The notes beneath the pieces were generated by a model. That model worked only from the letters and a program-made list of their open reading frames with translations, had not been told where the DNA came from and ran no database searches. Below, one piece after another: positions 21,491 to 59,642 of a stretch of DNA of 64,000 nucleotides. The stretch is taken from IMG/VR virus record IMGVR_UViG_3300030019_000030; one strand, written 5' to 3'. The translations under genes and the position numbers were made by a program. This DNA is from a virus. The stretch's first letter is position 1, and every line of letters begins with the position of its first letter.

Positions 21491-21539
21491 TATTCAGCAG
21501 AAGTTTTTTTTATATATAAGATAAATTATATAAATAAAA

Positions 21540-28948: not shown

Positions 28949-29926
28949 ATGACAATATTTAAAAATAAAAAAATATTAATCATAGGAGATGTTATGCTCG
29001 ATTCTTATTTTTTTGGTAATGTTGATAGAATTTCACCAGAAGCACCTGTACCAATTGTAGATATAATAAAAAAAGAAAATAAATTAGGCGGAGCTGCAAA
29101 CGTAGCATACAACATAAAAAATCTTGGTGGTACTCCTATATTATGCTCAGTTATCGGTAAAGATAATAATGGAGATGCAATATTATCTTTATTGAAAGAA
29201 AAAGAAATATCAACAAATTATATTATTCAATCTAGCATCAGAATAACTACAAACAAAACCAGAATAATTGGAAATAAATGCCAAATTTTAAGAATAGATG
29301 AAGAAATAACTGAAGATTTAAATAATGAATCAGATAACCTAATTTCATTGGTTATCTCAACAATAGAAAATGAACATGTAGATTGCGTGTTATTTCAAGA
29401 TTATGATAAAGGAGTATTAAATGAAAACATAATAAAAATTATAATCGAAAAAGCAAATTCATTAGGAATTTCTATATTAGTAGATCCTAAGAAAAAAAAT
29501 TTCAACTATTACGAAAATATTAAACTATTCAAACCAAATTTTAAGGAATTCAAAGAAAGTATTAATTTAAATATATCAGATAAAAATGAACTACTTAAAG
29601 AAGGATCCATTATACTTCATAATAAAGGAATAAATATTATATTTATTACACTATCAGAAAATGGTATATTTATTTCTTATAAAAAAGAAGGTAAAATAAT
29701 AAGTAAGATAATACCTACAACACAAAGAAACATAATTGATGTGTCTGGTGCTGGTGATTCTGTTATATCTGTTTTATCAATGTTAATTAATGATATAGAA
29801 ATAGAAGAGATAGCAAAAATTTCAAATTTAGCAGGAGGAATTGCATGTGAAAAAGTTGGAGTAGTTTCAATTGATAAAAATAGATTACTAAATGAATATT
29901 ATAATGATTCAAACAATACAAAATGA
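28949..29926 (+). CDS. rfaE: HldE/RfaE-type heptose-7-phosphate kinase (PfkB family)
   Basis: IGDVMLD, RISPEAPVP, GGAANVA, QDYDKG, VDPK, DVSGAGDSV. Confidence 0.9.
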   Translation: MTIFKNKKILIIGDVMLDSYFFGNVDRISPEAPVPIVDIIKKENKLGGAANVAYNIKNLGGTPILCSVIGKDNNGDAILSLLKEKEISTNYIIQSSIRITTNKTRIIGNKCQILRIDEEITEDLNNESDNLISLVISTIENEHVDCVLFQDYDKGVLNENIIKIIIEKANSLGISILVDPKKKNFNYYENIKLFKPNFKEFKESINLNISDKNELLKEGSIILHNKGINIIFITLSENGIFISYKKEGKIISKIIPTTQRNIIDVSGAGDSVISVLSMLINDIEIEEIAKISNLAGGIACEKVGVVSIDKNRLLNEYYNDSNNTK

Positions 29927-30224
29927 AATATACAAATTATTAGATGATTTAATTATATCTGAAAATAATAGTAATTCAAGGTACATGATAAAATCTTATA
30001 TATCTAATATTCTAAATAAAAATATATCTAATAACAATATAAATTTATATAAAGTTATATGCGATGAAACAAACAACATAGAAATAGACTCCATATATAT
30101 AGACGTTTATATTTTTATACATAATAGTAATTGCTCAACTGTAATTAGTTTTTTTAAAAATGTTAATAAAATAAGCAGATTGAGAAAATTAAGAAAAGAT
30201 AAGCTAAAAAAAATATACAAATGA
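29892..30224 (+). CDS. Miniature tail-sheath C-terminal-domain paralog with RKxK tail
   Basis: Gapless match to this window's sheath C-terminus (R..IK.....I......NN....[FY]..[VI]CDE.NN); ends LRKDKLKKIYK. Confidence 0.65.
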   Translation: MNIIMIQTIQNEIYKLLDDLIISENNSNSRYMIKSYISNILNKNISNNNINLYKVICDETNNIEIDSIYIDVYIFIHNSNCSTVISFFKNVNKISRLRKLRKDKLKKIYK

Positions 30225-30421
30225 CAGCATCAGAACTTGATAATATAGCATATGGTTTATATTTAAAATATATAAATGAAATGTTGATAAATAAAAATAT
30301 TGAGCACATAAAAATAGAAGAATTTATAAATTATAAAAAAATTTTCATATCTTTTTATAAAGATGCAAACATATTTTTAAGAAAAGAAAAAATAAATAAC
30401 ATAAATGAAAAATTATTATGA
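30221..30421 (+). CDS. Small hypothetical protein with RKxK tail
   Basis: Ends LRKEKINNINEKLL. Confidence 0.65.
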   Translation: MTASELDNIAYGLYLKYINEMLINKNIEHIKIEEFINYKKIFISFYKDANIFLRKEKINNINEKLL

Positions 30422-30695
30422 AGATGAAGAATCTGGATATGAAGATGAAGATGAATATGATGCAGAAAATAATCCAATAGAAGAAATTATAGATAAGTTG
30501 AATTTTTGTAGATTAGATTATTATAAACTTTACAAAAAAGATTTTAAAATTGCATCCATACGATTAAGACAGAATTTAGAATTTGTAATACAAACATCTA
30601 AACAACTAAAAAGGGATGCTCTTAAACACAGAAAAGAAATTGAAGAAAGACAAAGATTAGCAATAGAAGAAGCAAAAAATGAAGGAATATTATAA
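30405..30695 (+). CDS. Hypothetical protein, possibly related to Bacteroidota histone H1-like (Hc1) proteins
   Basis: Acidic N-terminus, then KKDFKIASIRLRQNL...KQLKRD helix resembling the GNKAAGTRARK..L..K pattern; weak. Confidence 0.35.
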   Translation: MKNYYEDEESGYEDEDEYDAENNPIEEIIDKLNFCRLDYYKLYKKDFKIASIRLRQNLEFVIQTSKQLKRDALKHRKEIEERQRLAIEEAKNEGIL

Positions 30696-31201
30696 TGACA
30701 AATGAATGGCTTAAGATTAAAGTAATTAGAGATATAAAAAATATCAAAAGAAATCAAAAATTATCTGGTATGTCATTATACACAATAAGAGACAAATATA
30801 GCATAACTTCAAAATTTACTAAAGAATATAGAAATCTAATAGAATTGATAAACAACTCATTAATAAAATGTGATAATACTAATATTTCAGAATCATATTT
30901 AAATAGTATTGATTTTGATTTATTCACAGAAGTATCAAAATTAAATAATGTAACAATAATAGACCAACCATCATTTATATACGGTTCAATGAAAAATAAT
31001 AATATAATTACACATCAAAGTAGTGTCATATCTTACGAAGGTGATCAATTAAATCACATAAAACATTCTAATAATAGTATTTATCTATATCAGATAGAAA
31101 AAAATTATGCAAGATTCAAAGAAATGAGTGATAATAAATTCTTCAAAATTAATATAAAAAATAAATTAAATAATTTAAGAATCAATGATAGTTTAATCTA
31201 A
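30695..31201 (+). CDS. Hypothetical protein
   Basis: Translationally coupled ORF. Confidence 0.65.
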   Translation: MTNEWLKIKVIRDIKNIKRNQKLSGMSLYTIRDKYSITSKFTKEYRNLIELINNSLIKCDNTNISESYLNSIDFDLFTEVSKLNNVTIIDQPSFIYGSMKNNNIITHQSSVISYEGDQLNHIKHSNNSIYLYQIEKNYARFKEMSDNKFFKINIKNKLNNLRINDSLI

Positions 31202-31642
31202 TGTATTGGTATTTGACAATTTTTCATAGTAATCAGGACTAAATATATCTTTACCTTCCAAAATATATTTTAGGTAATTCTTATCAGGTAATATATTTTT
31301 TCTAACCATAGATGAATTAGCAACATAAATTAATGCTCTAACTTTTTCGTCATCACAAAAAACATCAATTTCTTCTCTTGTATAATGCATGGGATGTCCT
31401 TCAAATTTATCTATTCTTTTAATATCAGACTCTTCAATCTCATATAACGCACCTTCGACAATATCATCATCAGATGGAATAACATTAGCAAATCCTAAAT
31501 AACAATTTTTCTTAGATACTTTATTAAAAACTAATTTATAATTTTCTAACGTTGCGAATTTTCTTGATGAAAAATTAATATTTCTTTCATTTTTCATTCT
31601 ATACTCAGATATATTACTACCATATGCAAAATATTTTATCAT
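31193..31642 (-). CDS. Gamma-glutamylcyclotransferase family protein
   Basis: YFAYGSN, VEGALYEI, IDKFEG..Y, ALIYVA. Confidence 0.88.
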   Translation of the reverse strand: MIKYFAYGSNISEYRMKNERNINFSSRKFATLENYKLVFNKVSKKNCYLGFANVIPSDDDIVEGALYEIEESDIKRIDKFEGHPMHYTREEIDVFCDDEKVRALIYVANSSMVRKNILPDKNYLKYILEGKDIFSPDYYEKLSNTNTLD

Positions 31643-31746
31643 TATTACTTAATTATTTTTTTTATATATTAAAAAATATCAGTTCAATGAATATGAATAA
31701 ACAATTCATTTTTTTTATAATACAAAAAATAAAATAATATCATATA

Positions 31747-32181
31747 ATGAGCACAACAATTAACAATATAGATTTTGATATCACAAATCTAAAAATAACA
31801 AACAACTCATTACCAATACAATTTAGTGGTGGGAGACTACAACATTATACCAATATGCAAAGTTCTACAATAGAAATGACAGCAACAACATCATTAAATA
31901 ACTTCGAAAAATTAAAAGATTGGTGCTTCAGTGATCAATATAATTATAAATCAGTTCATAAAGTTAATACTGATTACAACGGTAGAATATTAAATGGAGT
32001 ATTTCCTGTAAAATTTGAAATTAATCAAGATTACAATTTAATAGAAACTGATTTCTCTGTTGACTATGTATATTATGATGATGATTTAATTAAAGCAATA
32101 AGAAAGAAGGAAGAAAGAAAGAAAAGAAAAGATAAGATAAATAAATTAAATCATATTTGTGAATTAAGTAATAAAATTTAA
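31747..32181 (+). CDS. Tail-tube-like small protein with RKxK tail
   Basis: LKDW, ILNGVFP and ETDFSVDY resemble gp19-like tube motifs; ends RKDKINKL. Confidence 0.45.
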   Translation: MSTTINNIDFDITNLKITNNSLPIQFSGGRLQHYTNMQSSTIEMTATTSLNNFEKLKDWCFSDQYNYKSVHKVNTDYNGRILNGVFPVKFEINQDYNLIETDFSVDYVYYDDDLIKAIRKKEERKKRKDKINKLNHICELSNKI

Positions 32182-32188
32182 TATTTAT

Positions 32189-32554
32189 ATGCTAGTTTCA
32201 AACAAAATAAATTTCAAAAAATATATCATAAATATAAAAATATATGATATGTTATTCAAATTATCAGATATTATATTTTATGGTGATTACATAAAAATAT
32301 CAGCAACAACATCTAATGAAAATTATAAATTTATAAGCAATTTATTAGATTATAGCATCAATTCTCACATAAAAAAACAAGATGTGACAATATATAAAGA
32401 CACAAAAATACTTGGTATTTCTATAATAGATTTTGATTTCAACCAATGGAATATGAATGTTGAATTCAATGCTGAACGCATAATAGGTGATATCGAAAAC
32501 AGCTTAATTCAGTTAGAAAGAAAAGAAAAAATTAAAAAAATAAATAATATATGA
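32189..32554 (+). CDS. Paralog of the preceding ORF, with RKxK tail
   Basis: IKISATTSNENY vs IEMTATTSLNNF; ends ERKEKIKKINNI. Confidence 0.55.
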   Translation: MLVSNKINFKKYIINIKIYDMLFKLSDIIFYGDYIKISATTSNENYKFISNLLDYSINSHIKKQDVTIYKDTKILGISIIDFDFNQWNMNVEFNAERIIGDIENSLIQLERKEKIKKINNI

Positions 32555-35707: not shown

Positions 35708-35780
35708 TATTATAATACTTTATTTTAAATAATATATGATATAATTTTTTAATAGTTTATTTTTAATATATAGATTAACT

Positions 35781-36059
35781 ATGAGATACATAAAAACATT
35801 TGAAGATAAATCAGATAAAATAGAAGTAGGAGACTATGTTATCATTAAAAATAATACAGCATGTCATCCGAAATTTAATCATTTTTTTATAAATCCTTGT
35901 GAAGTCACATCATTAGATAATTCAGCAATTGATGGACACAACATAAAATTAAAATGTAAAACAGATAATATATGGTGGAAGAAAACAGACATCTATTATC
36001 ATTCAAAAAGAAAAGAAGATGTAGAATCAATTTTAAATACAAGAAAATTCAATTTATGA
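35781..36059 (+). CDS. SH3/KOW-like protein, CTS-like leader + KFNL tail
   Basis: MRYIKTFED; IEVGDYVII; TRKFNL*. Confidence 0.8.
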   Translation: MRYIKTFEDKSDKIEVGDYVIIKNNTACHPKFNHFFINPCEVTSLDNSAIDGHNIKLKCKTDNIWWKKTDIYYHSKRKEDVESILNTRKFNL

Positions 36060-36069
36060 GAAAAATCAT

Positions 36070-36378
36070 ATGAAAAATATTAGATTATATGAAGAATATA
36101 TAATCACAAACTATGAAGTTGGTGATTACATTTTATTTAAAGATGATTATCTAAAGTTCTGGAAGAAAAATAAATCTGGAATATCTAATGATGTTTTCAA
36201 ATTTGCAAAAATAACTGGATTAAACGCAAAAAATGATGATAGATATATTCTTGAAGTAATAGAAGATAATGATATAGTTACATATTATTTAGAAGAAAAA
36301 TATTTTGAAAGAAAATTAACATCAGAAGAAATAGAAGAATTTGAAATAACAAAAAAGTCATTAAAATTTAATATATGA
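36070..36378 (+). CDS. SH3/KOW-like protein, CTS-like leader + KFNI tail
   Basis: MKNIRLYEE; YEVGDYILF; SLKFNI*. Confidence 0.8.
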   Translation: MKNIRLYEEYIITNYEVGDYILFKDDYLKFWKKNKSGISNDVFKFAKITGLNAKNDDRYILEVIEDNDIVTYYLEEKYFERKLTSEEIEEFEITKKSLKFNI

Positions 36379-36977
36379 TAAAAAATTATACACAATACAT
36401 AAAAGAATCATACAATGAAATACACAGCAACTACGTAATGATAGATGATGATGAAACTGATAAGATATATATCGGAAAGGTAAAATTATCAAACAGAAAT
36501 AATTTTGTAGATTTATCATATTTTTATTGGTTTGATAAGTCTAAATTAAAATTAGAAAAAATTAGCGGTACAATTAGATTTAATGATTACACATTAAATA
36601 TTACATATCAATCTGATAGCTTAAAAAACTGTTTAATTAAAATATCTAACCTATATGACGGCATACAAAAATTCAAGACTTATAAAAAATATATCATAGG
36701 AGAAAATGATAAATATATAGGATTATACGAAGTTGAATATTCTGAACCATGGATTAAATATATGAATAAATATCCAAATGTAAAATTACATTTTTCATAT
36801 TATCCTGAATCAGAAAGAAAGAAAATATTTGACCATACAAACTCTAAATATGAGAATTCACCAAAATCAATAATGAGTTTCAACGTAGATATGAATACAA
36901 TAAAAGAATTTGATTCATTTGATGACGCATATTCAGTGTTAGAGATAAAGCAAGACGCAAACAAATTTAATTTGTAA
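36375..36977 (+). CDS. Hypothetical protein, CTS-like leader + KFNL tail
   Basis: MIKNYTQYIKES; ANKFNL*. Confidence 0.8.
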   Translation: MIKNYTQYIKESYNEIHSNYVMIDDDETDKIYIGKVKLSNRNNFVDLSYFYWFDKSKLKLEKISGTIRFNDYTLNITYQSDSLKNCLIKISNLYDGIQKFKTYKKYIIGENDKYIGLYEVEYSEPWIKYMNKYPNVKLHFSYYPESERKKIFDHTNSKYENSPKSIMSFNVDMNTIKEFDSFDDAYSVLEIKQDANKFNL

Positions 36978-37013
36978 ATATATAATTTCGAGTAAAAAAA
37001 AAAATTAAAATAT

Positions 37014-37433
37014 ATGATATATTTAAAAAAATTTGAATCAGAAAATATAATGGAAAACGAACAATGTTTTGTTTTCCTCCAAGGAAATGATGCAAATGAA
37101 GAACATTACTATGATTTGGTTCGTGAAAGTAAAAATGACAATTTAATACTTTATCCAGAAAGATCCATGACATTTGCTGATACTGTTGATTATAAACGTT
37201 ATGTTAAATCAGTAGTTACTGAAAATCCATTTATAATATCTTGTTATCCAAGAGAGAATGTATGGATATTACAAGATGATGATTGGACTCATCCAGATCA
37301 ACAAACATATGGAGCTAGTGTAAATCTTATAACATCTTCAATTTTACAATATAGAAACACTATACCAACTTCTGTGTTAGGCGGTGGTAAATTTAAAGAT
37401 AAAGTTAAAAAGTTAAAAAATTATAATGATTAA
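37014..37433 (+). CDS. CTS-like leader protein resembling the C-terminal part of an ABC/AAA_21-type ATPase
   Basis: MIYLKKFESE; VVTENPFIISCYPRENVWIL...QTYGASVNLI; no Walker A. Confidence 0.5.
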   Translation: MIYLKKFESENIMENEQCFVFLQGNDANEEHYYDLVRESKNDNLILYPERSMTFADTVDYKRYVKSVVTENPFIISCYPRENVWILQDDDWTHPDQQTYGASVNLITSSILQYRNTIPTSVLGGGKFKDKVKKLKNYND

Positions 37434-37451
37434 AAAATTATTACACACATA

Positions 37452-37718
37452 ATGAAATACGTTAAAAAATACGAAAATTTAAAAAAAGTCACTCCAAATT
37501 TCAAAGAAGGAGACTATGTCATTTGCATAGATAGCGAAGACTCAATCTTAACTAAAGACATGATATATTTAGTGAAAAAAATATTAAAAAATGTAAATGG
37601 TTATTATGTTTGTAAAGTAAATAGTAAATTAGGAAAAATTGGTGAAAATTTAGGAACATTTTTATGTGATAGATTTATATCAGAAATTGAATATAATACA
37701 AACAAATTTAATTTATAA
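37452..37718 (+). CDS. SH3/KOW-like protein, CTS-like leader + KFNL tail
   Basis: MKYVKKYEN; FKEGDYVIC; TNKFNL*. Confidence 0.8.
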   Translation: MKYVKKYENLKKVTPNFKEGDYVICIDSEDSILTKDMIYLVKKILKNVNGYYVCKVNSKLGKIGENLGTFLCDRFISEIEYNTNKFNL

Positions 37719-37721
37719 AAA

Positions 37722-38303
37722 ATGATAAAAAAATATTTACAATACATAACTGAATCAATAACAACCGATGTTGATGGATTATTGAACAGTATAAATGACA
37801 CTAAAATAGATTTCTTTAAAATTGGATTATCAAATGATGATTATATAGAAAAAACTATAGATTTTTTATATGATGATAGTGATTTTAATCAACAATTATT
37901 TAAACAGAATCTCAAAAAAGGAGAGATGGAAACTACAATGGAAATTGAGAATTTTTTAAGAAAAGACATTGACATGAAATTTTTCTTTCTATATAGTAGA
38001 GATGAAACAGTTTTAGATAATCCAAATTATATAATTTTACAATATTACAAAGATGATAAATGGTACCCTATTGAAATATATTCAATAAAAGGAAAAGTGG
38101 AAGAATTCTACAAAAAACTAACAGCAAAAACTATAAAATTAACTCTTGATAATATTACATATATTTATCAAACATCTAATTCTGGTAATAATTGGTTATT
38201 AAAAGAACCAGAAAAGAAAACTTCTAAATTCAAAGAAAATATAAATACAGATGATATAAAAACGTTAATAAAGGGCGGAGCTAAATTAAAAATTATAGAC
38301 TAA
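37722..38303 (+). CDS. Hypothetical protein with CTS-like leader
   Basis: MIKKYLQYITES. Confidence 0.75.
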   Translation: MIKKYLQYITESITTDVDGLLNSINDTKIDFFKIGLSNDDYIEKTIDFLYDDSDFNQQLFKQNLKKGEMETTMEIENFLRKDIDMKFFFLYSRDETVLDNPNYIILQYYKDDKWYPIEIYSIKGKVEEFYKKLTAKTIKLTLDNITYIYQTSNSGNNWLLKEPEKKTSKFKENINTDDIKTLIKGGAKLKIID

Positions 38304-38666
38304 ATGAAATATTTGAAAACATATGAAAACTTAAATGTTCCTAAAGAATACATTCTTTGTTTACTTGATCACAAAGATAGATGGGATAGAAATTTCTATC
38401 ATGAAGGTAAAGAACCTGTATATGTAATATTCAAAGTTTTAAAGCATGAAAAAAATAATAGTAATTATTATGATACAGATTTGAAAATAATTTATGAATA
38501 TCAAGATGAAGATAATTATTGTGATCGTAGATGGGACAAAATAAGAAACGAAGAAAGATTATTTTTTGAAAGTATAAAAGATAAAATAATCTATCAATCC
38601 AACAATTCAAAAGATGTATTAAACAAACTAAATATAATTAGGCAATCAAACAAATTTAATCTATAA
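38304..38666 (+). CDS. Hypothetical protein, CTS-like leader + KFNL tail
   Basis: MKYLKTYEN; SNKFNL*. Confidence 0.8.
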   Translation: MKYLKTYENLNVPKEYILCLLDHKDRWDRNFYHEGKEPVYVIFKVLKHEKNNSNYYDTDLKIIYEYQDEDNYCDRRWDKIRNEERLFFESIKDKIIYQSNNSKDVLNKLNIIRQSNKFNL

Positions 38667-38667
38667 C

Positions 38668-38988
38668 ATGAATCATTTAAAAAAATTTGAGAACATAAAT
38701 AAAGAAGATATAGATTACAATAAAATTTATTTATATAAGAATAAAGGTGGATATGTAGCAATTGGAAAAATAAAATTAATCAATAATTGCTACACATTTT
38801 ATGAATATTATGATAATCATGATACCTTTGAATTTGGAAATCTAATAGTAAAAATAGATTATTCTAAATATTATGAGGATGATTATATGAGGATGAATTC
38901 AGAAGATTTTGATTATTTAAATATTGCACCACAAGATGAAATCAAAAAATACAATTTTGCATTAGACTCTAAAAAATTCAATTTATAA
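38668..38988 (+). CDS. Hypothetical protein, CTS-like leader + KFNL tail
   Basis: MNHLKKFEN; SKKFNL*. Confidence 0.8.
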   Translation: MNHLKKFENINKEDIDYNKIYLYKNKGGYVAIGKIKLINNCYTFYEYYDNHDTFEFGNLIVKIDYSKYYEDDYMRMNSEDFDYLNIAPQDEIKKYNFALDSKKFNL

Positions 38989-38989
38989 T

Positions 38990-39262
38990 ATGAAACATTT
39001 AAAAATATTTGAGACATTTGATGAAGAATATAATATTGGCGATTGTGTAATAGTCATCAGTGAATTTAATAACATAGATGATGAGCCAATGATAATAATA
39101 TCTGATAATGATTTTGGTAGTTACACATGTAAGTTTTTAAATCAAGGTAGCCATGACTATCCTGATGTTAAAATTTATCCAGATGAGATTACAAGAAAAG
39201 CAACATCAGAAGATTTAGAAATATCTAAAATGTCTATAACAACAAGTAAATTCAATTTATGA
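38990..39262 (+). CDS. SH3/KOW-like protein, CTS-like leader + KFNL tail
   Basis: MKHLKIFET; YNIGDCVIV; TSKFNL*. Confidence 0.8.
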   Translation: MKHLKIFETFDEEYNIGDCVIVISEFNNIDDEPMIIISDNDFGSYTCKFLNQGSHDYPDVKIYPDEITRKATSEDLEISKMSITTSKFNL

Positions 39263-39784
39263 TTTTATTTCAAAACATTGTCCGAAGTCAGAAAACAACA
39301 AATCAAATTTTTCATAATTTGAACCAAAGTAAATGAAGCAGCAAGCCATTGGAGCACCTTTTTTATCTTCAACACCTTCACTCCAAAATTTCAATCTTGT
39401 ATCTTTTAAAAAACACAAACCTTTTGCTTTTTTGAATATTAAATCTTTAAAATGCTTAGTGTTAGTAGCAACTGGAATCAGATACAAAATTTCACTTTTA
39501 TAATTTTCATTTGCATCGACTCCTTTTTTAATCCAATCATATATTCTTGTTTTATTTTCAACATCTGAACCATAAGGAGGATTAACAAATAAAGTTTTAT
39601 AGTTCCAACTTTCTTTTAATCCATCTGTTGGTAAAATATATTTAATTTTAGCATCTATCATACTAGTTTCATTACTACATGGATCTAATACTACTTCTCC
39701 TAACATTTTATTTATTAATTCTACAAATTTAGGTGGAGTGTTCCATGTTTTATTTTTAGATATACTATTTCTTCCTGCAGTCAT
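39257..39784 (-). CDS. Phage DNA N6-adenine methyltransferase (Dam-like)
   Basis: WNTPP, LDPCS, LFVNPPYG, LIPVATNTKHF. Confidence 0.85.
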   Translation of the reverse strand: MTAGRNSISKNKTWNTPPKFVELINKMLGEVVLDPCSNETSMIDAKIKYILPTDGLKESWNYKTLFVNPPYGSDVENKTRIYDWIKKGVDANENYKSEILYLIPVATNTKHFKDLIFKKAKGLCFLKDTRLKFWSEGVEDKKGAPMACCFIYFGSNYEKFDLLFSDFGQCFEIKS

Positions 39785-39834
39785 TAAATTGATTATTATT
39801 TTTTAATATATATAGAAAAATAAGGTTTCAAAAC

Positions 39835-40524
39835 ATGATTGTCTATAAAAAAATTTTAGAATATTTAGATAATAAAGAAAAGAATGAAAACTACAAATTA
39901 ATTGATTATACTAGATTATCAGATAGTTTAACTAATGATCAAATTAAAGATTTGTGTAAAGAAGCGGAAGATAATAATTTTTATGCAATTTCTGTATTAC
40001 CAGAATTTGTAGCATCAGTAGAATCATTCGTTAAAAATGAAATTAAAGTATCTGCATTAATTGATTTTCCTAAAGGAAATTCAATCACAAAATATAAACT
40101 TGATCAAATTGATAAATCAATTGTCAATGGAGCTGATGAAATTGATGTTGTACTTAATTATGAATTGATAAAAAAAGATAAAACAGAAGAATTAGAAACA
40201 GAAATAAGAAAATTGACGGAATATTGTCACAAAGAAGGTTCAATCATAAAATTAACAATTGAAATTGGAGCACTTAACAATGAAGAAATTGAAAAAATTT
40301 GTAGAATGTGCATTGAAAATAATGTAGATTATATATCTACATCTACTGGAAAATTACCTAATGATGAATCATTTGAACAAAAAATTGAGAAAGTTAAATT
40401 CATGAGAAAAATATTACCTGATTATGTTAAAATAAAATTCACTGGTGGTATTAGAACAACCGAACAAATAAAAGAGATTAAATCTCTGGTAGATAGAATC
40501 GGAACAAGTATAATTCCACAATAA
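39835..40524 (+). CDS. deoC: Deoxyribose-phosphate aldolase-like protein lacking the Schiff-base Lys
   Basis: IDYTRL, IDFPKG, GADEIDVV, IKFTGGIRT; YISTSTG where active enzymes have KTSTG. Confidence 0.8.
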   Translation: MIVYKKILEYLDNKEKNENYKLIDYTRLSDSLTNDQIKDLCKEAEDNNFYAISVLPEFVASVESFVKNEIKVSALIDFPKGNSITKYKLDQIDKSIVNGADEIDVVLNYELIKKDKTEELETEIRKLTEYCHKEGSIIKLTIEIGALNNEEIEKICRMCIENNVDYISTSTGKLPNDESFEQKIEKVKFMRKILPDYVKIKFTGGIRTTEQIKEIKSLVDRIGTSIIPQ

Positions 40525-40536
40525 AAAATATAATTT

Positions 40537-40869
40537 ATGAAACATTTAAAATACTTTGAAAATAAAATAAAAAAATACGAAATTGGAGATTTTGTTATAG
40601 GTAAAGTTGATTGGACAGAAACAGACGGTTATACAATTGATGAGATAAATAATTACTTGAGTAATGAAGCAGGAGAAATAGTAGACATGGAACTAAATGG
40701 AATAGATGATGATTTCATAACTCTACGTTATATGAATTTATCACTACCTATGTTTGAGTTTTGTGAAGATATAATATGTTTTGATACTAATCAAATACTA
40801 AGATATGCAACACAGAAGGAAATAGAAATATTTAAAATGAAAGAAAACACAGAAAAATTCAATTTATAA
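40537..40869 (+). CDS. SH3/KOW-like protein, CTS-like leader + KFNL tail
   Basis: MKHLKYFEN; YEIGDFVIG; TEKFNL*. Confidence 0.8.
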   Translation: MKHLKYFENKIKKYEIGDFVIGKVDWTETDGYTIDEINNYLSNEAGEIVDMELNGIDDDFITLRYMNLSLPMFEFCEDIICFDTNQILRYATQKEIEIFKMKENTEKFNL

Positions 40870-41792: not shown

Positions 41793-42443
41793 ATGATAAC
41801 AAATTTTAAAAATTTTAATATGAATGAATCTCTATCAAATTTTGACTTGAGCAAATTAGTAACGATTATATCAATAAATAAAGACTCAGAAGGAAACTGG
41901 ATTTATAAAACAGATGATAGAAAAGAATTTAAACTACCAAAAGAACAAGCAGGAAAATTAACATTGATTGATGATAATTTTGCAAATTTTGTAAACTCTG
42001 GACATCCAATAACAAAATATTTCGAAATAACAGATGATAATATTATATCATATGTAGCGAATTTTGCTGTTGATGCTGTGGCTTTAAGAGAGGGTAGGGT
42101 TTATCTAATAGAAAGGCAAGACGGTAGAGGCTGGGCTTTACCAGGAGGCTTTATTGATGCTGGAGAAACACCTCAGCAAGCAGTTCTAAGAGAACTAACT
42201 GAAGAAACAAAGGCAAAGAGTGATGACATTAAAAGTATAGAGTCATTAGATATGATTAGAACTAATGATCCAAGAGAAATAAATTTCTTCACATTTCCTT
42301 TTGTTATTCATATAAAAAATACATCAGAGCTATCATTTGATGATGATGCAAAAAGTGGAAAATGGATGTTATTAAATAGGGCGTCAAAATCACAATTAGC
42401 ATTCTCTCATCACAATGATATTCTCAAAAAAGTATCATTCTAA
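41793..42443 (+). CDS. Nudix hydrolase with CTS-like leader
   Basis: WALPGGFIDAGETPQQAVLRELTEET Nudix box. Start moved from 41487 to ATG 41793 (MITNFKNFNMNES) because the upstream part is antisense to the lysin repeat. Confidence 0.85.
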   Translation: MITNFKNFNMNESLSNFDLSKLVTIISINKDSEGNWIYKTDDRKEFKLPKEQAGKLTLIDDNFANFVNSGHPITKYFEITDDNIISYVANFAVDAVALREGRVYLIERQDGRGWALPGGFIDAGETPQQAVLRELTEETKAKSDDIKSIESLDMIRTNDPREINFFTFPFVIHIKNTSELSFDDDAKSGKWMLLNRASKSQLAFSHHNDILKKVSF

Positions 42444-42459: not shown

Positions 42460-42493
42460 AAAAAAAGCTGAAATTTAAATTTCAGCTTTTTTT
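42460..42493. terminator. Bidirectional intrinsic terminator
   Basis: AAAAAAAGCTGAAATTTAAATTTCAGCTTTTTTT. Confidence 0.85.
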
Positions 42494-42968
42494 ATAAATT
42501 AAATTTAGAAGTGTCTTTATATAGATTAAAATAAGTCAGATTAATATTAGAAATAATGTTATTTACATCATTCTGTTTAATAATACTTGAAAAACTATAA
42601 TATTCACCATAATCTTCTTTTGGCGACATTATATGTCTTAAAAATGATAGAGTATATGACCATTTATCTTCATAAACTTTTTTTACAGATTTACCCCAAT
42701 GAAAATCTATTTTAATATCAACATTATTAATTATAGTAAAAAGAACATAAAAAATAACATCAAATTCTGATGTAGGAAAACTACATCTATTAATAGTTAT
42801 CATATGTTCATAATCTGGAGGTGAATTTGTAGAATAAAATAAATCAGTATCAATAGTTTTTAAAAAATCAACAATTTTATCACCTAACTTAATTACTTTA
42901 TAATGAGAATCAAGATGAGCCACAAATTCTTCAGTATAAACTACATGTTCCTCAAATTTTATAATCAT
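42492..42968 (-). CDS. Hypothetical protein, CTS-like leader + KFNL tail
   Basis: MIIKFEE; TSKFNL*. Confidence 0.75.
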   Translation of the reverse strand: MIIKFEEHVVYTEEFVAHLDSHYKVIKLGDKIVDFLKTIDTDLFYSTNSPPDYEHMITINRCSFPTSEFDVIFYVLFTIINNVDIKIDFHWGKSVKKVYEDKWSYTLSFLRHIMSPKEDYGEYYSFSSIIKQNDVNNIISNINLTYFNLYKDTSKFNL

Positions 42969-42971
42969 AAA

Positions 42972-43433
42972 TTATATGTTAAATTTTTTAATGTCATTTG
43001 AAAGATCATATTCTTTAATTGACAATTTTTTAATTAAATATGGAATATCAGTAATATTTATTGAACTATGAAAAGAATAATATTGAAAAGTGTTATCAAA
43101 AGGCAATAGTAGTTTTTTAATAAACAGCAAAAAATCTTCACATTTTATCATATCTGTCATCCGACTGCAGTTTTCTATATCTATTCTAATAGAAGGAGTA
43201 TATTCTATCCAATCAAATTGTTCATCTTTAATATAAAATGATATACTGAAAATTTCACCAAATGAAATATTGTTTTTATAAAAAGTTAATTTATAATATT
43301 CATTATCCGCACGCCAACTGGATTGACATTCAATATTCTCACCTTTAATAATATGGTTAAAAATCAACAAAAAAGATTTTGCCAATTTTTCAACGTATTT
43401 TTTTGAATTATAGCAATTATAATTATACATCAT
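42972..43433 (-). CDS. Hypothetical protein with KFNI tail
   Basis: Ends IKKFNI*; C-terminal half similar to 42492..42968. Confidence 0.75.
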   Translation of the reverse strand: MMYNYNCYNSKKYVEKLAKSFLLIFNHIIKGENIECQSSWRADNEYYKLTFYKNNISFGEIFSISFYIKDEQFDWIEYTPSIRIDIENCSRMTDMIKCEDFLLFIKKLLLPFDNTFQYYSFHSSINITDIPYLIKKLSIKEYDLSNDIKKFNI

Positions 43434-44268: not shown

Positions 44269-44300
44269 CAAAGATAATACATAATCAAATGATAATCAAA
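44269..44300 (-). promoter_or_regulatory. Bacteroidota sigma70 promoter (-33/-7)
   Basis: Exact TTTG-N20-TATCTTTG on the minus strand. Confidence 0.8.
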
Positions 44301-45557: not shown

Positions 45558-45996
45558 CTAATTTTCTTTTCTTAATCATTTCCTCAATATATTGATCAGT
45601 AGGCAATTTAATACTTGGATCTGACTTCTTAATAGGTTTATCAGAATTATCTTTAATACCTTCTTTATCATTTATCTCTTTAACTATTGAAGCTAAATAT
45701 TGTTCTGGACTCATTTTTAAATCATCATCAGTATAAATCATACCATAAACAGTATCATCATTAAATATATAAAATTCTTTTGATGATAAAGTAAAATCTT
45801 GATAAAAAATCAACTTACCTATTGAACCATATGTCAGAACTTGTTTTCCTGTCATTTCCAAATATTTATTCATAAATGGATCTTTAATTCTAACTGTTTC
45901 TTGTTTTAAATCAATAAAATTTTCTCCCAAATTCATTTTAAAAATTGATATCTTTCTAAATATATTTAGCATTTGTGTATTTGATACTATTATCAT
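45544..45996 (-). CDS. Hypothetical protein
   Basis: Coupled ORF. Confidence 0.7.
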   Translation of the reverse strand: MIIVSNTQMLNIFRKISIFKMNLGENFIDLKQETVRIKDPFMNKYLEMTGKQVLTYGSIGKLIFYQDFTLSSKEFYIFNDDTVYGMIYTDDDLKMSPEQYLASIVKEINDKEGIKDNSDKPIKKSDPSIKLPTDQYIEEMIKKRKLDGNG

Positions 45997-46544
45997 TGTG
46001 TATAAATATTATCTTTTAAGTCATTTTTATCTGTTCCTTCGTCATCTGATTTATCTTTTAATTGACCTAATTTATCAATCATAAAATCTTCTTTTATATC
46101 TTCAACATCAACCTCTTCGACCAATTCTCCTTTTTCTTCCATTTCATCGTTAAATTGATGAATTTTCAATAATATTTTATTTATTTCCAATGCTTTACCT
46201 TCAGTTGGAGTTTCAATTGGAGCAGCACCTTGTTCTTGAGATTGAGAATTATCAGTTCCTTTCATTTGATCTAGTCTAACCATAAATATAACTCTATATC
46301 TAAAAAATGAATCTTCATCTTCATCTTTATCTTCAGTTTCTTCTATAGGTTCAGAAAAATTAAAAATTAAAAATTTTTCCATTGGATTAGAATTAGAAAT
46401 ATCTATTTGACCATCCAATGAGCAGCCTTGAGCAGCCAATGAACCTTCACTAAACCATTTTTCGATTTGAGATTTTAATTCCTTAAAAAATACTGTTATT
46501 TTATAATCAGCAGATTCTACATATTCTTCAAAAAGTTTCTTCAT
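45993..46544 (-). CDS. Acidic hypothetical protein with CTS-like leader
   Basis: MKKLFEEYVES. Confidence 0.75.
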   Translation of the reverse strand: MKKLFEEYVESADYKITVFFKELKSQIEKWFSEGSLAAQGCSLDGQIDISNSNPMEKFLIFNFSEPIEETEDKDEDEDSFFRYRVIFMVRLDQMKGTDNSQSQEQGAAPIETPTEGKALEINKILLKIHQFNDEMEEKGELVEEVDVEDIKEDFMIDKLGQLKDKSDDEGTDKNDLKDNIYTQ

Positions 46545-46620
46545 TTATAATAATTATTTTAAAGTATATATAAAAATAACTTCATAGAAAATCACATAAA
46601 AAAATTAATATATAAGAAAC

Positions 46621-46977
46621 ATGAAGTATATTAAAAAATTCGAAGGTTCTAATGAAAAAGGTAAATTTTGGAAAATAAATACAGATGAGCCATATTTTGA
46701 AATATCATTACATAAACTTGGATTTGATGACTCAATAAAGGAGACAATTTACAGTATGAATAACTACCACATAAAAAATAGCGGGTTAGTTTATATTTAT
46801 ATAATTGACACAAACACATCATGGATGGGAATATCTGTAACATGGAGTCAAGTTTCAGATTTCAGAAAAGATACTGCAATAGAAAACGGTAATGAGTATA
46901 TGGGAGAAGTCGATATAACAGAAGAAGATATTAAAAAATGGAAACTAATTAAAACAGCCGAAAAATTTAATTTATGA
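46621..46977 (+). CDS. Hypothetical protein, CTS-like leader + KFNL tail
   Basis: MKYIKKFEG; AEKFNL*. Confidence 0.8.
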   Translation: MKYIKKFEGSNEKGKFWKINTDEPYFEISLHKLGFDDSIKETIYSMNNYHIKNSGLVYIYIIDTNTSWMGISVTWSQVSDFRKDTAIENGNEYMGEVDITEEDIKKWKLIKTAEKFNL

Positions 46978-47615
46978 AATATCTAAAAGCATTTGAATCA
47001 GAAGTATCATCAGGTAATGCATCAGGAAAGGCTGGGGTTGGATCAATTCCATTTGGAAGAGGTTATATGCAATCAGGTGGAAACAATGGAGCCAGTGGCA
47101 TAGTATTCACTGCGGTTGGAGAACCATCTTATACTACATACAAAAGTATGAAGCATTCGAAAAAAGAATTGAAAGAGAAAAGAAGAAGATTGAAAATGTA
47201 TAAAAAATTCAAAAAAGATTCTATAATATCAGAGAGAATTGTTGAGATTGATCAAAGTTCATGGAATTGGGGATCAGAAACAAATGATGAAAATATAGGC
47301 AAATATGTTATAATGAATGAATTTGAAAAAGATGCATTTGCATCTACTAGAGAAAATAAAAAAGAATTAAATGATTTTGTTAAAAATAATAGTGGTAAAA
47401 TAGTAGCATCAAAAAAATCAGGAGTTGGTGTTACTTATATGATAAAGTATAATAATATACCTGAGTATTTAAAAAAATATTTTGTTAGTTTTAACTTTAC
47501 AAATGACGCAGAACATAAATATATGAGAGCAATAAAAAGACATAACACAATTGAATTCATAGGATCAAAAGAAGAATGTGAAATTAAAATATCAACAAAA
47601 AAATATAATTTATAA
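46974..47615 (+). CDS. Two-part protein: Gly-rich N-terminus + SH3/KOW-like domain, KYNL tail
   Basis: MKYLKAFES; NIGKYVIM...NNSGKIV...KYNNIP resembles 1067..1423; TKKYNL*. Confidence 0.8.
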   Translation: MKYLKAFESEVSSGNASGKAGVGSIPFGRGYMQSGGNNGASGIVFTAVGEPSYTTYKSMKHSKKELKEKRRRLKMYKKFKKDSIISERIVEIDQSSWNWGSETNDENIGKYVIMNEFEKDAFASTRENKKELNDFVKNNSGKIVASKKSGVGVTYMIKYNNIPEYLKKYFVSFNFTNDAEHKYMRAIKRHNTIEFIGSKEECEIKISTKKYNL

Positions 47616-48058
47616 TGATAATACATTTCAAGGAATTTATAACAGAAGGATTTTTAAATATATTCAATAAAAAAAAAGAATCTATTGAAAATGATAATGA
47701 GAAAATTCTCAGAATGATTTATGATAAAGAGCCAGAACTACAAAAGTATAAATTTGAAGTAGATTCTTGGAATAGAAGAGGAGATTTATTACCAAGAGAA
47801 AAAAGAAATGATGAAATAATAACCAACCTAAATGGAATTGATGTTATTTTTGATACAGTAACAAAAATTTACGAAATTTCTATTGCGCCTAGATACGATT
47901 TTGATTTTTCTCTTAGAATACTCAATTTAATTGATGAAAATTATGACACACTTTCTCATAATTTATACAAATCTAGTATATCAACAAAATCAATATTATT
48001 CACAGAAATGAGTGAAGAAAGAAAATTTGAATTAGACACAAAAAAATATAATCTATAA
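47615..48058 (+). CDS. Hypothetical protein, CTS-like leader + KYNL tail
   Basis: MIIHFKEFITEG; TKKYNL*. Confidence 0.8.
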   Translation: MIIHFKEFITEGFLNIFNKKKESIENDNEKILRMIYDKEPELQKYKFEVDSWNRRGDLLPREKRNDEIITNLNGIDVIFDTVTKIYEISIAPRYDFDFSLRILNLIDENYDTLSHNLYKSSISTKSILFTEMSEERKFELDTKKYNL

Positions 48059-48059: not shown

Positions 48060-48452
48060 ATGAAAAAATTTGATGAATTTATAAAAGAAGATGCATTTGC
48101 AACTATGGGAAACACAGGAGGAATGGGTGCTATTGTAGCTGCTCAACCAGGAAGTATTCCAGGATCTCAAGGAACTACTGGTTCTGGTGATATTAGTCAG
48201 CCTCTTGCTACATATTCTAAACCCGTAGTAAATTTAAAAAGACATAAAAAATCTAAGAAAAATAAAATGAGAAAAGTAGAATCATTTGATATTTTCATGA
48301 AAGAAGAAAATGAGATAATAGACAATTTCACTGCAAGATATTATGATAATTATGATGATGAAGAAGAACCAAGTTATGAAGTAAATATTCAAGATATTGA
48401 AGAAAATAATATTAAAAAAATTCAAATGTACGAAAAAGATGAAAATAAATAA
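48060..48452 (+). CDS. Gly-rich hypothetical protein with T4-like CTS
   Basis: MKKFDEFIKED, then MGNTGGMGAIV...GSGD. Confidence 0.8.
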   Translation: MKKFDEFIKEDAFATMGNTGGMGAIVAAQPGSIPGSQGTTGSGDISQPLATYSKPVVNLKRHKKSKKNKMRKVESFDIFMKEENEIIDNFTARYYDNYDDEEEPSYEVNIQDIEENNIKKIQMYEKDENK

Positions 48453-50666: not shown

Positions 50667-50702
50667 AAAAAGAAAGTCAATCATAAGATTGACTTTCTTT
50701 TT
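50667..50702. terminator. Bidirectional intrinsic terminator
   Basis: AAAAAGAAAGTCAATC-ATAA-GATTGACTTTCTTTTT. Confidence 0.85.
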
Positions 50703-51180
50703 CATTATCAAATATTTCTTGTAATTTAAGTTTACGTACAATTCTTTTAGATTCTGATAAAATTTCATCTTTTGATTTATAACAAATAATATTATTCAAA
50801 TCAATATACAATCTATCACTACATATTGAAGTTCTATAATATCTATACGTATCCATAGGAATATAGTCATCATAATATATAGGTCTGCGTATTAAATATT
50901 TAAGATCATTATCAAGTAAGTATTTAAAATTATGCTGTACCTTTTTTAATATTTCAGAATAAACATCATTCCAATTTTCACCAATTTTAGAATCCAAAAA
51001 ATCAGACAAAGGTTTATTGTCATAATGATGACAATGATAATTGTCTCCATATTTTTTCATTGATTCATGATAAGGTAAATCTGAAAACAAATCAATATCA
51101 TTATTTCTTTTTGTTTTAACATATTGATATTGTCGTCTTGAAAAATTAGATCTTCTATATAAAAATTTATTTTTAAGCAT
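50677..51180 (-). CDS. Hypothetical protein with RKxK motif
   Basis: PLSDFLDSKIGENWNDVYSEI; near the C-terminus VRKLKLQEI. Confidence 0.7.
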   Translation of the reverse strand: MLKNKFLYRRSNFSRRQYQYVKTKRNNDIDLFSDLPYHESMKKYGDNYHCHHYDNKPLSDFLDSKIGENWNDVYSEILKKVQHNFKYLLDNDLKYLIRRPIYYDDYIPMDTYRYYRTSICSDRLYIDLNNIICYKSKDEILSESKRIVRKLKLQEIFDNEKESQSYD

Positions 51181-51200
51181 AATTAGAAGTCATTAATTTT

Positions 51201-51647
51201 TTATGACTCCTTAATAAGATCTCTATATTTTGCAGCGGTTTCGTAATCTTCTACATTAACACAATCCAGCATTTTCTCATTAAGAATTCCTTGTTGTATT
51301 CCACGTATTTCAGGATCATCATATTTATAATTTTCTATCAAATCTTGAAATATATTAAAATATTTTTCTGTTTCACGAATAACATCTTCTTTTTTAAGAT
51401 TAGCAACTTTAAACATATCTATCATATCAATATGTTCATTTACCTTTTTCATTTTATTATAAACACCATAAGCATCTAGCATAAGCTCATCAATATGTAA
51501 AACATTAGAATCCACTAAAACACTATCTATTGATATAGATTTATCAAGCAACATTTGATGATTAAATTTTTTGTGCTCAAATAAATAAAATGTTTGAACC
51601 CAAAAAATAAGGGTTCTGATGTCGTTAACATTAATCTTTGTTTTCAT
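51201..51647 (-). CDS. Protein with C-terminal UVR (UvrB/C) coiled-coil motif
   Basis: MLDCVNVEDYETAAKYRDLI. Confidence 0.7.
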   Translation of the reverse strand: MKTKINVNDIRTLIFWVQTFYLFEHKKFNHQMLLDKSISIDSVLVDSNVLHIDELMLDAYGVYNKMKKVNEHIDMIDMFKVANLKKEDVIRETEKYFNIFQDLIENYKYDDPEIRGIQQGILNEKMLDCVNVEDYETAAKYRDLIKES

Positions 51648-51660
51648 AATTTCAATATAA

Positions 51661-52053
51661 TTATTTAAATTGTTTTATTTTTTCTTTTTCAATAATCTCA
51701 TCAATAATAATCAAATCACTAAGAGATAAACTATTAAGAATATTATTAAAATCATCTAAATTTAGTGATTTTATTTTTTCTATTAATTCTTCAATAAATG
51801 GAATTTTTTCTAATCGTTCAAGTTTATCCGCTCTTTCTTTTTTTATATCTGGACCTGGTTTCAATTTACCTGATTTGTATAAATCTATCAAATCTTTACT
51901 TTCTTTCAATCCTAATTTAGAATATTCTTTCATCATTTTAACAGACATAATATATTCAGTTCCTGAAATGTATGCTTCAAATTCAGATTTGTGATCAAAT
52001 AAAATTTTTGCGCCTAATATTAAATGATCTGCATTAATAATTACTGAATTCAT
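51661..52053 (-). CDS. Protein with ribosomal bL12 C-terminal-like motif
   Basis: IMSVKMMKEYSKLGLKESKDLID resembles the bL12 KI..IK.VR..TGLGLKEAKDLVE helix-turn-helix. Confidence 0.55.
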   Translation of the reverse strand: MNSVIINADHLILGAKILFDHKSEFEAYISGTEYIMSVKMMKEYSKLGLKESKDLIDLYKSGKLKPGPDIKKERADKLERLEKIPFIEELIEKIKSLNLDDFNNILNSLSLSDLIIIDEIIEKEKIKQFK

Positions 52054-52094
52054 AATGAAATATTTTATTTAAAATTATACATCTATTTATGCAG

Positions 52095-52125
52095 CAAAGA
52101 TAATACAATATTTTTAAATAACAAA
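52095..52125 (-). promoter_or_regulatory. Bacteroidota sigma70 promoter (-33/-7)
   Basis: Exact TTTG-N19-TATCTTTG on the minus strand. Confidence 0.8.
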
Positions 52126-52127
52126 AA

Positions 52128-52439
52128 CTAATTGAATATTTTTTTCAATTTCTTTTTTCTTAGCATTTTTATTCCACCAATAATCTCTACATTATCAAAC
52201 TTAAATTCTTCACGTTCATTTTTTTTAGAAACATACAAAGTACTATACATTACTAACAAAAAGTATTGTTCTTTGAAAAGTGGATGGTCTTTTTTTATTT
52301 TATTTTTCAATTGAAATGTTTTCAATTGAAATAAATATGTAATAAAAGCATCACTTTTTGAAGATAACTCAATAGGATTTTTATTTTTTATATGAAAATC
52401 AATATCCTTAATGAAATCATATAATTGATAATTTGACAT
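52128..52439 (-). CDS. Hypothetical protein with RKxK tail
   Basis: Ends LRKKKLKKIFN. Confidence 0.7.
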   Translation of the reverse strand: MSNYQLYDFIKDIDFHIKNKNPIELSSKSDAFITYLFQLKTFQLKNKIKKDHPLFKEQYFLLVMYSTLYVSKKNEREEFKFDNVEIIGGIKMLRKKKLKKIFN

Positions 52440-59044: not shown

Positions 59045-59323
59045 TTGTATATATTAAAAATAAATAAGGTAATTATGAAAGTCATAAAAAAAGGTAGCAT
59101 TGTAACTCAGGATAAAAATTTTTTTTATTATTGGACATGTCCAAAATTTAAATTAGAAGTAATTAAAATTGATGGACGAATAGCTTATTTTAAATATGAC
59201 ATTATAATGAAAAATTCAAATAATATAATGCAATCAACTAAAAGCATAAACATTGATTATATAAAAATAGACATATCAGAAACAAGAAAACAAAAATTAT
59301 TAAAAATAAATGAGCGAATTTGA
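59045..59323 (+). CDS. Hypothetical protein with RKxK tail
   Basis: Ends TRKQKLLKINERI; true start may be the later MKVIKKG. Confidence 0.65.
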   Translation: MYILKINKVIMKVIKKGSIVTQDKNFFYYWTCPKFKLEVIKIDGRIAYFKYDIIMKNSNNIMQSTKSINIDYIKIDISETRKQKLLKINERI

Positions 59324-59642
59324 TGAAATAAATTCCTTAAAAGAAGGAACAGAAAAAATAGATAAACTAATAAATTTCTATAAAGTAACGGTAAAAATTA
59401 ATGAATGGTTAAATGGGACAAATAAAAATTCTATTATACACTTCAAAGATAGAATTGAATATAAAAGAAATAATCAATATCATAGACTAAATGGACCTGC
59501 TATTGATTATGAGAATGAAGACAAAAATAAATATTACTATAAGGGAATATTATACAATTCAAAAGATGAATGGTCGAAGATTACACAAAAAGAAGTAAGA
59601 AAAACAAAACTAAAAAGAATAAAAAAAGAAAGTTCAGAATAA
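59310..59642 (+). CDS. HRxxGPA-motif protein with RKxK tail
   Basis: YHRLNGPAIDY; ends VRKTKLKRIKKESSE. Confidence 0.7.
   Translation: MSEFDEINSLKEGTEKIDKLINFYKVTVKINEWLNGTNKNSIIHFKDRIEYKRNNQYHRLNGPAIDYENEDKNKYYYKGILYNSKDEWSKITQKEVRKTKLKRIKKESSE

Follow-up and report, generated by a model that had tools for sequence, protein, structure and literature searches.

We analysed a stretch of virus DNA of 64,000 nucleotides (the window, to which all coordinates refer unless a contig is named), corresponding to bases 14,622-78,621 of a linear contig of 235,318 bp from IMG/VR (record IMGVR_UViG_3300030019_000030; 24.4% GC; 33% complete according to CheckV). The contig comes from a phage with a contractile tail. 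At 35,781-40,869, and at several other places in the window, lie open reading frames (ORFs) for small proteins which share a short N-terminal leader, a short C-terminal tail, or both; these terminal peptides are called tags here. About 46 of the 391 crude ORFs of the contig carry one or both tags, and 40 of them end with K-[FY]-N-[LI]-stop. A preliminary description of this DNA, which covered the N-terminus only, had named about 24 ORFs with a shared leader. All of them were found with the starts given, and the tail, which is conserved at least as strongly as the leader, extends the family. It was confirmed that the observation of leader and tail is real and larger in extent than first described.

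The leader occurs in three main variants. Variant A, M-K-[YH]-[LI]-K-x-[FY]-E, is dominant and was found in 369 ORFs of a wider sample of 1,832 unique ORFs from related contigs. Variant B, M-[KI]-K-x-[FY]-x-[EQ]-[FY]-I-x-E, which recalls the capsid-targeting sequence (CTS) of phage T4, is minor (24 of the 1,832), and variant C reads M-I-T-x-F-K-[IL]-[FY]-E. In the same sample the K[FY]N[LI]-stop tail is present on 523 ORFs, across many folds. The two tags co-occur: the tail is found in 313 of the 369 ORFs with leader A (about 83-85%) and is otherwise absent, near-misses making up just 4.6%. The features concerned are as follows.

536-1063 (-): tagged ORF, 175 aa, loose leader MKLKRFNE, tail KYNI; between the sheath and tube genes
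1067-1423 (-): tagged ORF, 118 aa, MKYLKIYE, tail KFNI, SH3-like subfamily; TAATATATA motif at 1429-1437
1470-1871 (+): tagged ORF, 133 aa, MRYIKTFE, tail KFRI; terminator-like hairpin next
35764-35772 (+): TAATATATA promoter-like motif, 9 nt 5' of the first gene of the main array
35781-36059 (+): tagged ORF, 92 aa, MRYIKTFE...KFNL, SH3-like; first gene of the main array
36070-36378 (+): tagged ORF, 102 aa, MKNIRLYE...KFNI, SH3-like
36375-36977 (+): tagged ORF, 200 aa, T4-CTS-like variant B MIKNYTQYIKE, tail KFNL; body without Pfam or PHROG match
37014-37433 (+): ORF, 139 aa, leader MIYLKKFE, no tail
37452-37718 (+): tagged ORF, 88 aa, MKYVKKYE...KFNL, SH3-like
37722-38303 (+): ORF, 193 aa, variant B MIKKYLQYITE, no tail; relatives 86-90% identical
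38304-38666 (+): tagged ORF, 120 aa, MKYLKTYE...KFNL; metagenome orthologues 53-77% identical
38668-38988 (+): tagged ORF, 106 aa, MNHLKKFE...KFNL
38990-39262 (+): tagged ORF, 90 aa, MKHLKIFE...KFNL, SH3-like; last gene of the array, convergent with the Dam gene
40537-40869 (+): tagged ORF, 110 aa, MKHLKYFE...KFNL, followed by a terminator-like hairpin; SH3-like barrel in AlphaFold2
41793-42443 (+): Nudix hydrolase, conserved start MITNFKNFNMNE resembling variant C, no tail
42492-42968 (-): ORF, 158 aa, weak leader MIIKFEEH, tail KFNL; in an operon behind a host-type promoter
42972-43433 (-): ORF, 153 aa, tail KFNI, no leader
45993-46544 (-): ORF, 183 aa, variant-B-like start MKKLFEEYVE, no tail
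46621-46977 (+): tagged ORF, 118 aa, MKYIKKFE...KFNL; TAATATATA motif at 46606-46614
46974-47615 (+): tagged ORF, 213 aa, MKYLKAFE...KYNL
47615-48058 (+): tagged ORF, 147 aa, variant B MIIHFKEFITE, tail KYNL
48060-48452 (+): ORF, 130 aa, variant B MKKFDEFIKE, no tail
61103-62005 (-): ORF, 300 aa, leader MKYLKCYE, no tail, no Pfam match
62028-62453 (-): tagged ORF, 141 aa from an internal ATG, variant C MIKNFKIFE, tail KFNI
62464-62817 (-): ORF, 117 aa, variant C MIIEFKIYE, ART-PolyVal-like, no tail

Most of the starts listed in the preliminary description fit the leader, while those at 536, 42492 and 45993, together with a 41-aa ORF at 48439, are loose fits only. The strict form of the leader, [KRN][YHN][LIV][KR]x[FY][EQ], begins at residue 2 in 23 ORFs of the contig where 0.016 are expected, so that its occurrence is beyond chance; internally it occurs 3 times in the 72,257 residues of the whole contig. 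Similarly, K[FY]N[LIV] forms the C-terminus of 40 of the 391 ORFs (0.07 expected), with 13 internal occurrences. When compared with these internal frequencies, the enrichment is about 1,400-fold for the leader and about 570-fold for the tail.

The bodies which carry the tags are mostly unrelated, as had been stated before. BLASTP of the trimmed bodies joins few of the 46, and 601 tagged ORFs collected from the loci with the junction DNA pattern (see below), other related loci and the contig group into 245 BLAST clusters. SH3-like barrels of about 90-120 aa make up the largest of these; AlphaFold2 models the barrel with a predicted local distance difference test score (pLDDT) of 79; a Foldseek comparison of the model with PDB and BFVD gave generic SH3-like similarity only, with no functional lead. 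Both tags are also found on ankyrin-repeat bodies (Ank_2, 2.9e-24), leucine-rich-repeat (LRR) bodies (LRR_4, 8.1e-31 and 3.8e-18) and a methyltransferase body (Methyltransf_24, 4.2e-9). Weaker matches are ExoX-like and DnaJ-zinc-finger-like, many bodies match nothing, and Pfam and PHROGs assigned a family to none of ten array members. An ADP-ribosyltransferase (ART)-like body, that of 62464-62817, matches ART-PolyVal with an E-value of 2.6e-5 and 25.4 bits, below the cut-off of 31.2 bits. The leader is therefore portable across unrelated cargoes (SH3-like, ankyrin, LRR, methyltransferase and ART-like). From the cargo list proposed earlier, the SH3-like and ART-like proteins do carry it, but the start of the Nudix gene is just a looser, variant-C-like one.

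The anatomy of the tags was examined in 200 non-SH3 clusters. The leader is conserved from residue 2 to Glu8, after which conservation falls to background and a polar, variable linker follows. At positions -4 to -1 of the tail the consensus residues are K (83%), Y/F (80%), N (79%) and L/I (81%), and a weak amphipathic pattern precedes them to about -17. In the AlphaFold2 model of an SH3-like member (40537-40869), leader residues 1-10 are undocked with pLDDT below 50, and the C-terminal helix spans residues 93-108. For an ankyrin member, modelled with pLDDT 88, the leader has a score of 53, and the last helix precedes the tail. Both tags thus lie outside the folded body. We considered an intramolecular clasp of the two ends and rejected it, since AlphaFold2 leaves the ends unpaired and the ends of a solenoid are far apart, so that the two tags cannot form one intramolecular module. 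From the undocked leaders and the far-apart solenoid termini, both tags are read as independent short linear motifs recognised in trans. The tagged proteins are acidic, with a median isoelectric point (pI) of 5.3 versus 7.7 for other small ORFs; 65% have a pI below 6 and 9% above 9. A second, distinct C-terminal ending, R-K-x-K-[LI]-x-x-[IL], was seen on other small ORFs of the window (29892-32554, 50677-52439 and 59045-59642), for example ...RKKKLKKIFN at 52128-52439.

The family is virus-specific, and it is absent from Pfam, PHROGs, GenBank phages and the searched literature, in which nothing relevant was found for the tag strings. A profile of the SH3-like subfamily matched 2,459 representative clusters (50% identity, E <=1e-3) among 1.84 billion, with metagenomic and unnamed members. 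Among the 150 SH3-like matches listed, nearly all are about 90-130 aa, match end to end and have the same two ends; the ESM Atlas gave unnamed viral clusters only. At least 117 IMG/VR stretches, from contigs as long as 330 kb, contain the junction DNA pattern, while about 185,000 prokaryote genomes gave 15 single chance-like matches and zero family members. Across the contigs of the clade, whose members are very large and uncultured phages of peat bogs, tagged genes make up 12-19% of all genes. In the 330-kb relative 108 of 570 genes are tagged, and one contig of 54 kb has more than 40 SH3-like tagged genes in tandem.

The tagged genes are located among late-type and tail genes, of which the following are relevant here.

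1922-5524: tail sheath (phrog_34521, 3.8e-80)
just left of the window start: tail tube (phrog_45, 2.7e-6)
6227-6853 (+): sigma factor, near the sheath gene (phrog_1740, 3.1e-23)

On the same strand as the sheath and tube genes, and located between them, are two family genes, each of which has the motif T[TA]ATATATA. In the contig this motif lies 5' of 58 genes, with two preferred distances to the ATG: it is 24-33 nt upstream of the sheath, baseplate, collagen-like fibre and large fibre-like paralogue genes and 13-17 nt upstream of 17 family genes, and it is also found upstream of the tube gene. The sites in the window include 401-409, 1429-1437, 5545-5553, 21510-21518, 35764-35772 and 46606-46614. 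The motif is a candidate late promoter, and the phage sigma factor could be the reader of such a TATATA-type motif. A host-type (Bacteroidota-type) promoter was found for ten genes and lies directly upstream of no family gene. The turnover of the tagged genes is fast, in the manner of an arms race. When the window is compared with two syntenic relatives, the family genes are 33-81% identical and the neighbouring core genes 80-93%; family genes were gained and lost between relatives, one was duplicated and one was split. The split gene is the orthologue of 37014-37433 in the relative L004 (8189-8608), where it is divided into ORFs of 50 and 88 aa, which suggests that individual tagged genes are dispensable. 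A PF00004 AAA ATPase gene divergently adjoins the main array, as it also does in the relatives.

The conserved residues of the tags, K, F, Y, N, I and L, are precisely the ones which A/T-only codons can encode, and the tail of one gene forms a single junction with the leader of the next. For these reasons we tested whether the signal sits in the DNA. At conserved positions, minor synonymous codons occur at about the background rate, both in the contig and in the 1,832 ORFs from related contigs. TTC accounts for 15.8% of the tail Phe codons against a background of 14.5%, and codon use at leader Lys2, Lys5 and Glu8 equals the background. Two codons are commoner than in the background (AAC at the tail Asn, 35% versus 11.7%; TAC at the leader Tyr, 21% versus 10%), and two are depleted (AAG at the tail Lys, 1.9% versus 11%; TTC at the leader Phe, 4.8% versus 14.5%). 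The variable tag positions show conservative swaps only (F/Y, L/I/V/M, K/R), and AT-only changes which would alter the residue, such as Phe to Leu, Lys to Asn or Glu to Lys, are almost absent. The codon of the conserved Glu contains a G despite the 24% GC of the genome. The tail is also kept by genes which stand before a terminator or a convergent gene, and the leader by the first genes of arrays. These results point to selection on the tag peptides rather than on the DNA. A TGA stop ends 305 of the 523 tails, and in the 15 TGA tails of the contig this stop and the next start codon overlap as ATGA. Together with the depletion of AAG and TTC, this frequent overlap makes it possible that the junction also serves, secondarily, to couple translation. 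Where a tail KFNI precedes a TAA stop, the DNA reads as the TTAATATATAA promoter-like motif. The idea of the tail as a hitch-hiking promoter was rejected, as KFNI-TAA is a minority of the tails and related contigs mostly have KYNL.

The reading we favour, though we hold it with somewhat less than even confidence, is that the tags are short linear sorting peptides which load proteins into the assembling virion. Such fold-independent peptides would put a large, fast-changing set of small binders and enzymes on one route, and the tagged proteins would enter the assembling virion and reach the next host cell with the DNA. The 8-residue leader would act like the T4 CTS, that is, as an amphipathic, Glu-ending peptide binding the prohead core, and a head protease specific for Glu may remove it behind this residue. 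At the C-terminus, K-[FY]-N-[LI]-COOH, which closes an amphipathic helix, would provide a second contact, serving retention, ordering or ejection. Packaging, cleavage, injection and a role against host defences are what we infer for the tagged proteins. Virion loading is favoured by the match of variant B to T4, the Glu at the end of conservation, the undocked and portable leaders and the effector-like bodies, and by the fast evolution and apparently late expression of the genes; against host defences, a late protein would be of most use if it travelled with the DNA. The more specific proposal, that a two-part code consisting of a CTS-like leader and the new K-[FY]-N-[LI]-COOH tag loads dozens to more than 100 interchangeable proteins per genome into particles, is also possible but a little more doubtful.

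In T4 the CTS is MKTYQEFIAE and is cut once (PMC8442874). The internal proteins of T-even phages are diverse, counter host defences and have only the leader in common (PMC8442874, PMC3012670), and those of T4 are described as highly basic (PMC8442874). Our proteins resemble them in having a short peptide from Met1 to Glu on otherwise unrelated, fast-evolving, non-essential proteins. Variant B (e.g. MKKYKEFINE) and MKTYQEFIAE agree at 6-7 of 10 positions, among them those of I-x-E, and the near match proposed earlier, MKKFDEFIKE at 48060, is identical to the T4 sequence at 6 of 10. The T4-type interpretation of the preliminary description is therefore partly supported: the I-x-E resemblance of variant B, the stop of conservation at Glu and the portable, undocked leader agree with it, but the dominant variant has no L/I at P3, the cargo is acidic, and the tail is left unexplained.

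Several observations weigh against virion loading. Leader A, of 8 residues, has an aromatic residue at P2 while P3 varies, unlike the L/I-x-E site of T4; the cargo is acidic where that of T4 is basic; and the C-terminal tag has no T4 counterpart. The number of cargoes, 46 to more than 100 per contig versus a handful in T4, far exceeds, to our knowledge, that of any virion payload. A head protease, a major capsid protein and a portal were not recognised in five contigs of the clade, which are 30-46% complete and very divergent, by the profiles Peptidase_S77, Gp23, Portal_T4, Peptidase_S78 and Phage_capsid, by PHROG and Pfam searches of about 40 large ORFs, or by PDB sequence searches with three large ORFs of contig G001. 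An ORF of 407 aa was considered as a prohead-type protease and rejected, its matches being a weak PHROG match to 'protease' and a sub-threshold one to NAL1_N. The enrichment of T[TA]ATATATA in the window is modest (40 observed versus 22 ± 5 expected), so much of the timing argument depends on a late assignment which we infer. Finally, the two tail-only members at 42492-43433 belong to an operon behind a host-type promoter.

Other known systems were also compared. The giant phages phiKZ, 201phi2-1 and SPN3US have many paralogous internal head proteins (PMC5694885). Giant-phage head proteases cut after Glu, and the diverged head paralogues of SPN3US keep conserved N-termini (PMC5694885). The head and ejection paralogues of these phages are therefore similar to our proteins in combining conserved N-termini with diverged proteins (PMC5694885), and their cut after Glu resembles the one predicted for our leader, but their propeptides are mostly longer than 100 residues, with a small-x-Glu site, homologous bodies and no C-terminal tag described (PMC5694885). 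Here the leader has 8-11 aa and an aromatic P2 and stands on unrelated folds. The cargo-loading peptides of encapsulins are short, usually C-terminal, and sufficient to load unrelated enzymes into a shell of the HK97 fold. Our tail follows the same logic, being a short peptide exactly at the C-terminus of unrelated cargo, but the likeness ends there, as encapsulins have another consensus, form a cellular system rather than a phage capsid and use one tag rather than two. Polyvalent proteins and MuF-fused phage toxins (Pfam ART-PolyVal) are virion-carried effector domains delivered with the DNA, and one of the leader-bearing ORFs here has the ART-PolyVal-like domain scoring below the cut-off. 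Those proteins are giant multi-domain products or fusions to head proteins, whereas ours are separate small proteins tagged at their termini. The family is best filed as a two-ended tag system allied to the CTS and internal-protein idea but outside the T4 family.

Several explanations dispense with packaging. A chaperone, unfoldase or protease could recognise the tags as degrons or handling signals at the protein ends and so control lifetime or folding. AAA+ adaptors and tail-specific proteases read motifs at a free N- or C-terminus, exactly where these tags sit, and among the phage genes are those of a ClpA/B/C-type double AAA+ protein with Clp_N and of several MoxR-like ATPases, besides that of the PF00004 AAA ATPase next to the main array. 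Nevertheless, a ClpP-like peptidase was not seen, the adjacency of the ATPase is limited to close, fully syntenic relatives, a degron on more than 100 diverse proteins would have no obvious reason, and the motifs are unlike ClpX or ssrA signals; we consider this explanation unlikely. The same grade of doubt applies to an expression or cassette-junction device, in which AT-only stop/start coupling without a Shine-Dalgarno sequence, a promoter-like sequence or micro-homology would be selected and the peptide conservation would be a by-product. It would account for the A/T-only codons of all conserved residues other than Glu and His, for the TGA and ATGA overlaps and the promoter-like KFNI-TAA, and for the codon bias at the tail Lys and the leader Phe. 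However, tags are retained at the starts and ends of operons, residue-altering AT-only changes hardly occur, in contrast to the common F/Y and L/I/V/M swaps and C-ending synonyms, and the highly expressed structural genes have no tags, which makes it improbable that the peptide is a side effect.

Two further alternatives concern where the proteins would end up. As docking or assembly peptides, the tags could bind a common site on the exterior of the virion, or join N-tag to C-tag in head-to-tail polymers, the link being perhaps a Lys-Asn isopeptide with Glu as the catalyst. Lys, Glu and Asn with aromatic residues form the residue set of pilin- and HK97-type isopeptide chemistry; here conservation is strongest at Lys and Glu of the leader and at Lys and Asn of the tail, with aromatic flanks, and the genes are located in tail modules. 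We still give this idea little chance: AlphaFold2 keeps the two ends apart in the models of both folds, with the leader undocked and the tail at a helix end, unlike a pilin-type arrangement, in which the first strand pairs with the last and Lys, Asn and a catalytic Glu/Asp touch; the ends of ankyrin and LRR solenoids are far apart; and the large fibre-like paralogues of the phage use another shared N-terminus. Even less probable, and by some way the least of those weighed here, is that the tags are export signals for a host secretion system which sends the binders out, possibly into a eukaryotic cell harbouring the host. Ankyrin and LRR proteins are typical of effectors aimed at eukaryotes, and such bodies occur here; the tail is strictly C-terminal and preceded by a Glu-rich stretch at -11 to -17, which loosely recalls type IV signals. 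Known secretion signals, however, are degenerate and unlike a near-invariant motif of four residues, and the contig holds nothing pointing to an intracellular host.

If the tags are sorting signals, they would form a new and very compact two-ended address code for any fold, by which sequence alone would flag hundreds of candidate host-manipulating proteins in uncultured huge phages, among them ankyrin, LRR and SH3-like binders, an ADP-ribosyltransferase-like domain and a methyltransferase. The short-leader loading of variable, defence-countering proteins known from T4 would then be scaled to 12-19% of the genes of a contig. If virion loading is true, the injected protein arsenal would be far larger than that known for any other phage, and the tags would be a natural two-tag cargo-loading system which could be reused for protein encapsidation. 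The tags make testable how large phages choose the proteins that travel with their DNA. Whatever the mechanism, the family is large, virus-specific and unnamed, with 2,459 clusters for one subfamily.

With regard to the phage itself, further virion-type genes are those of a baseplate wedge protein and a gp5-like spike with an M23 peptidase. Other genes identified encode a DnaB-type helicase, a RecA/UvsX-like recombinase, a ribonucleotide reductase, a sigma factor, a Dam methylase, a GH19 lysozyme and a Nudix hydrolase. The locus is frequent in peat metagenomes, with more than 75% of the array present in at least 12 runs, and was found in none of the RNA runs; megablast and tblastn against 50,697 GenBank phage records gave zero matches. 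The consensus of the Bacteroidota-type promoter (TTTG-N17-21-TAnnTTTG, often TATTATCTTTG) was seen 5' of ten genes contig-wide, with sites in the window at 11231-11261, 44269-44300 and 52095-52125; these promoters and the absence of Shine-Dalgarno sequences suggest a Bacteroidota host.

The five contigs of the clade (G000, G001, G002, G004 and G005) are 214-330 kb long, and their CheckV completeness of 30-46% each implies a reference size of about 700 kb. G000 and G001 have almost no large proteins in common, and hence they may be different parts of very large genomes. The only large proteins which they share are homing-endonuclease-like (phrog_12131; 10214-11020 (-) in the window and several ORFs of G001). 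A full-length ClpA/B/C-type chaperone with Clp_N, two AAA+ modules and ClpB_D2-small is encoded at 94277-96811 of G000 (L010:6278-8812). At 150733-155255 the same contig encodes two MoxR-like ATPases and an HNH-endonuclease-like protein with leader-like starts (MIKKF..., MIKKY... and MKTLKNY...). Seven large paralogues of 508-1335 aa lie at 206081-232392 (-) of G000; they have their own shared N-terminus, MINIQLASEEWV-like, with differing bodies, and probably represent tail fibres which can replace one another and attach by the same end.

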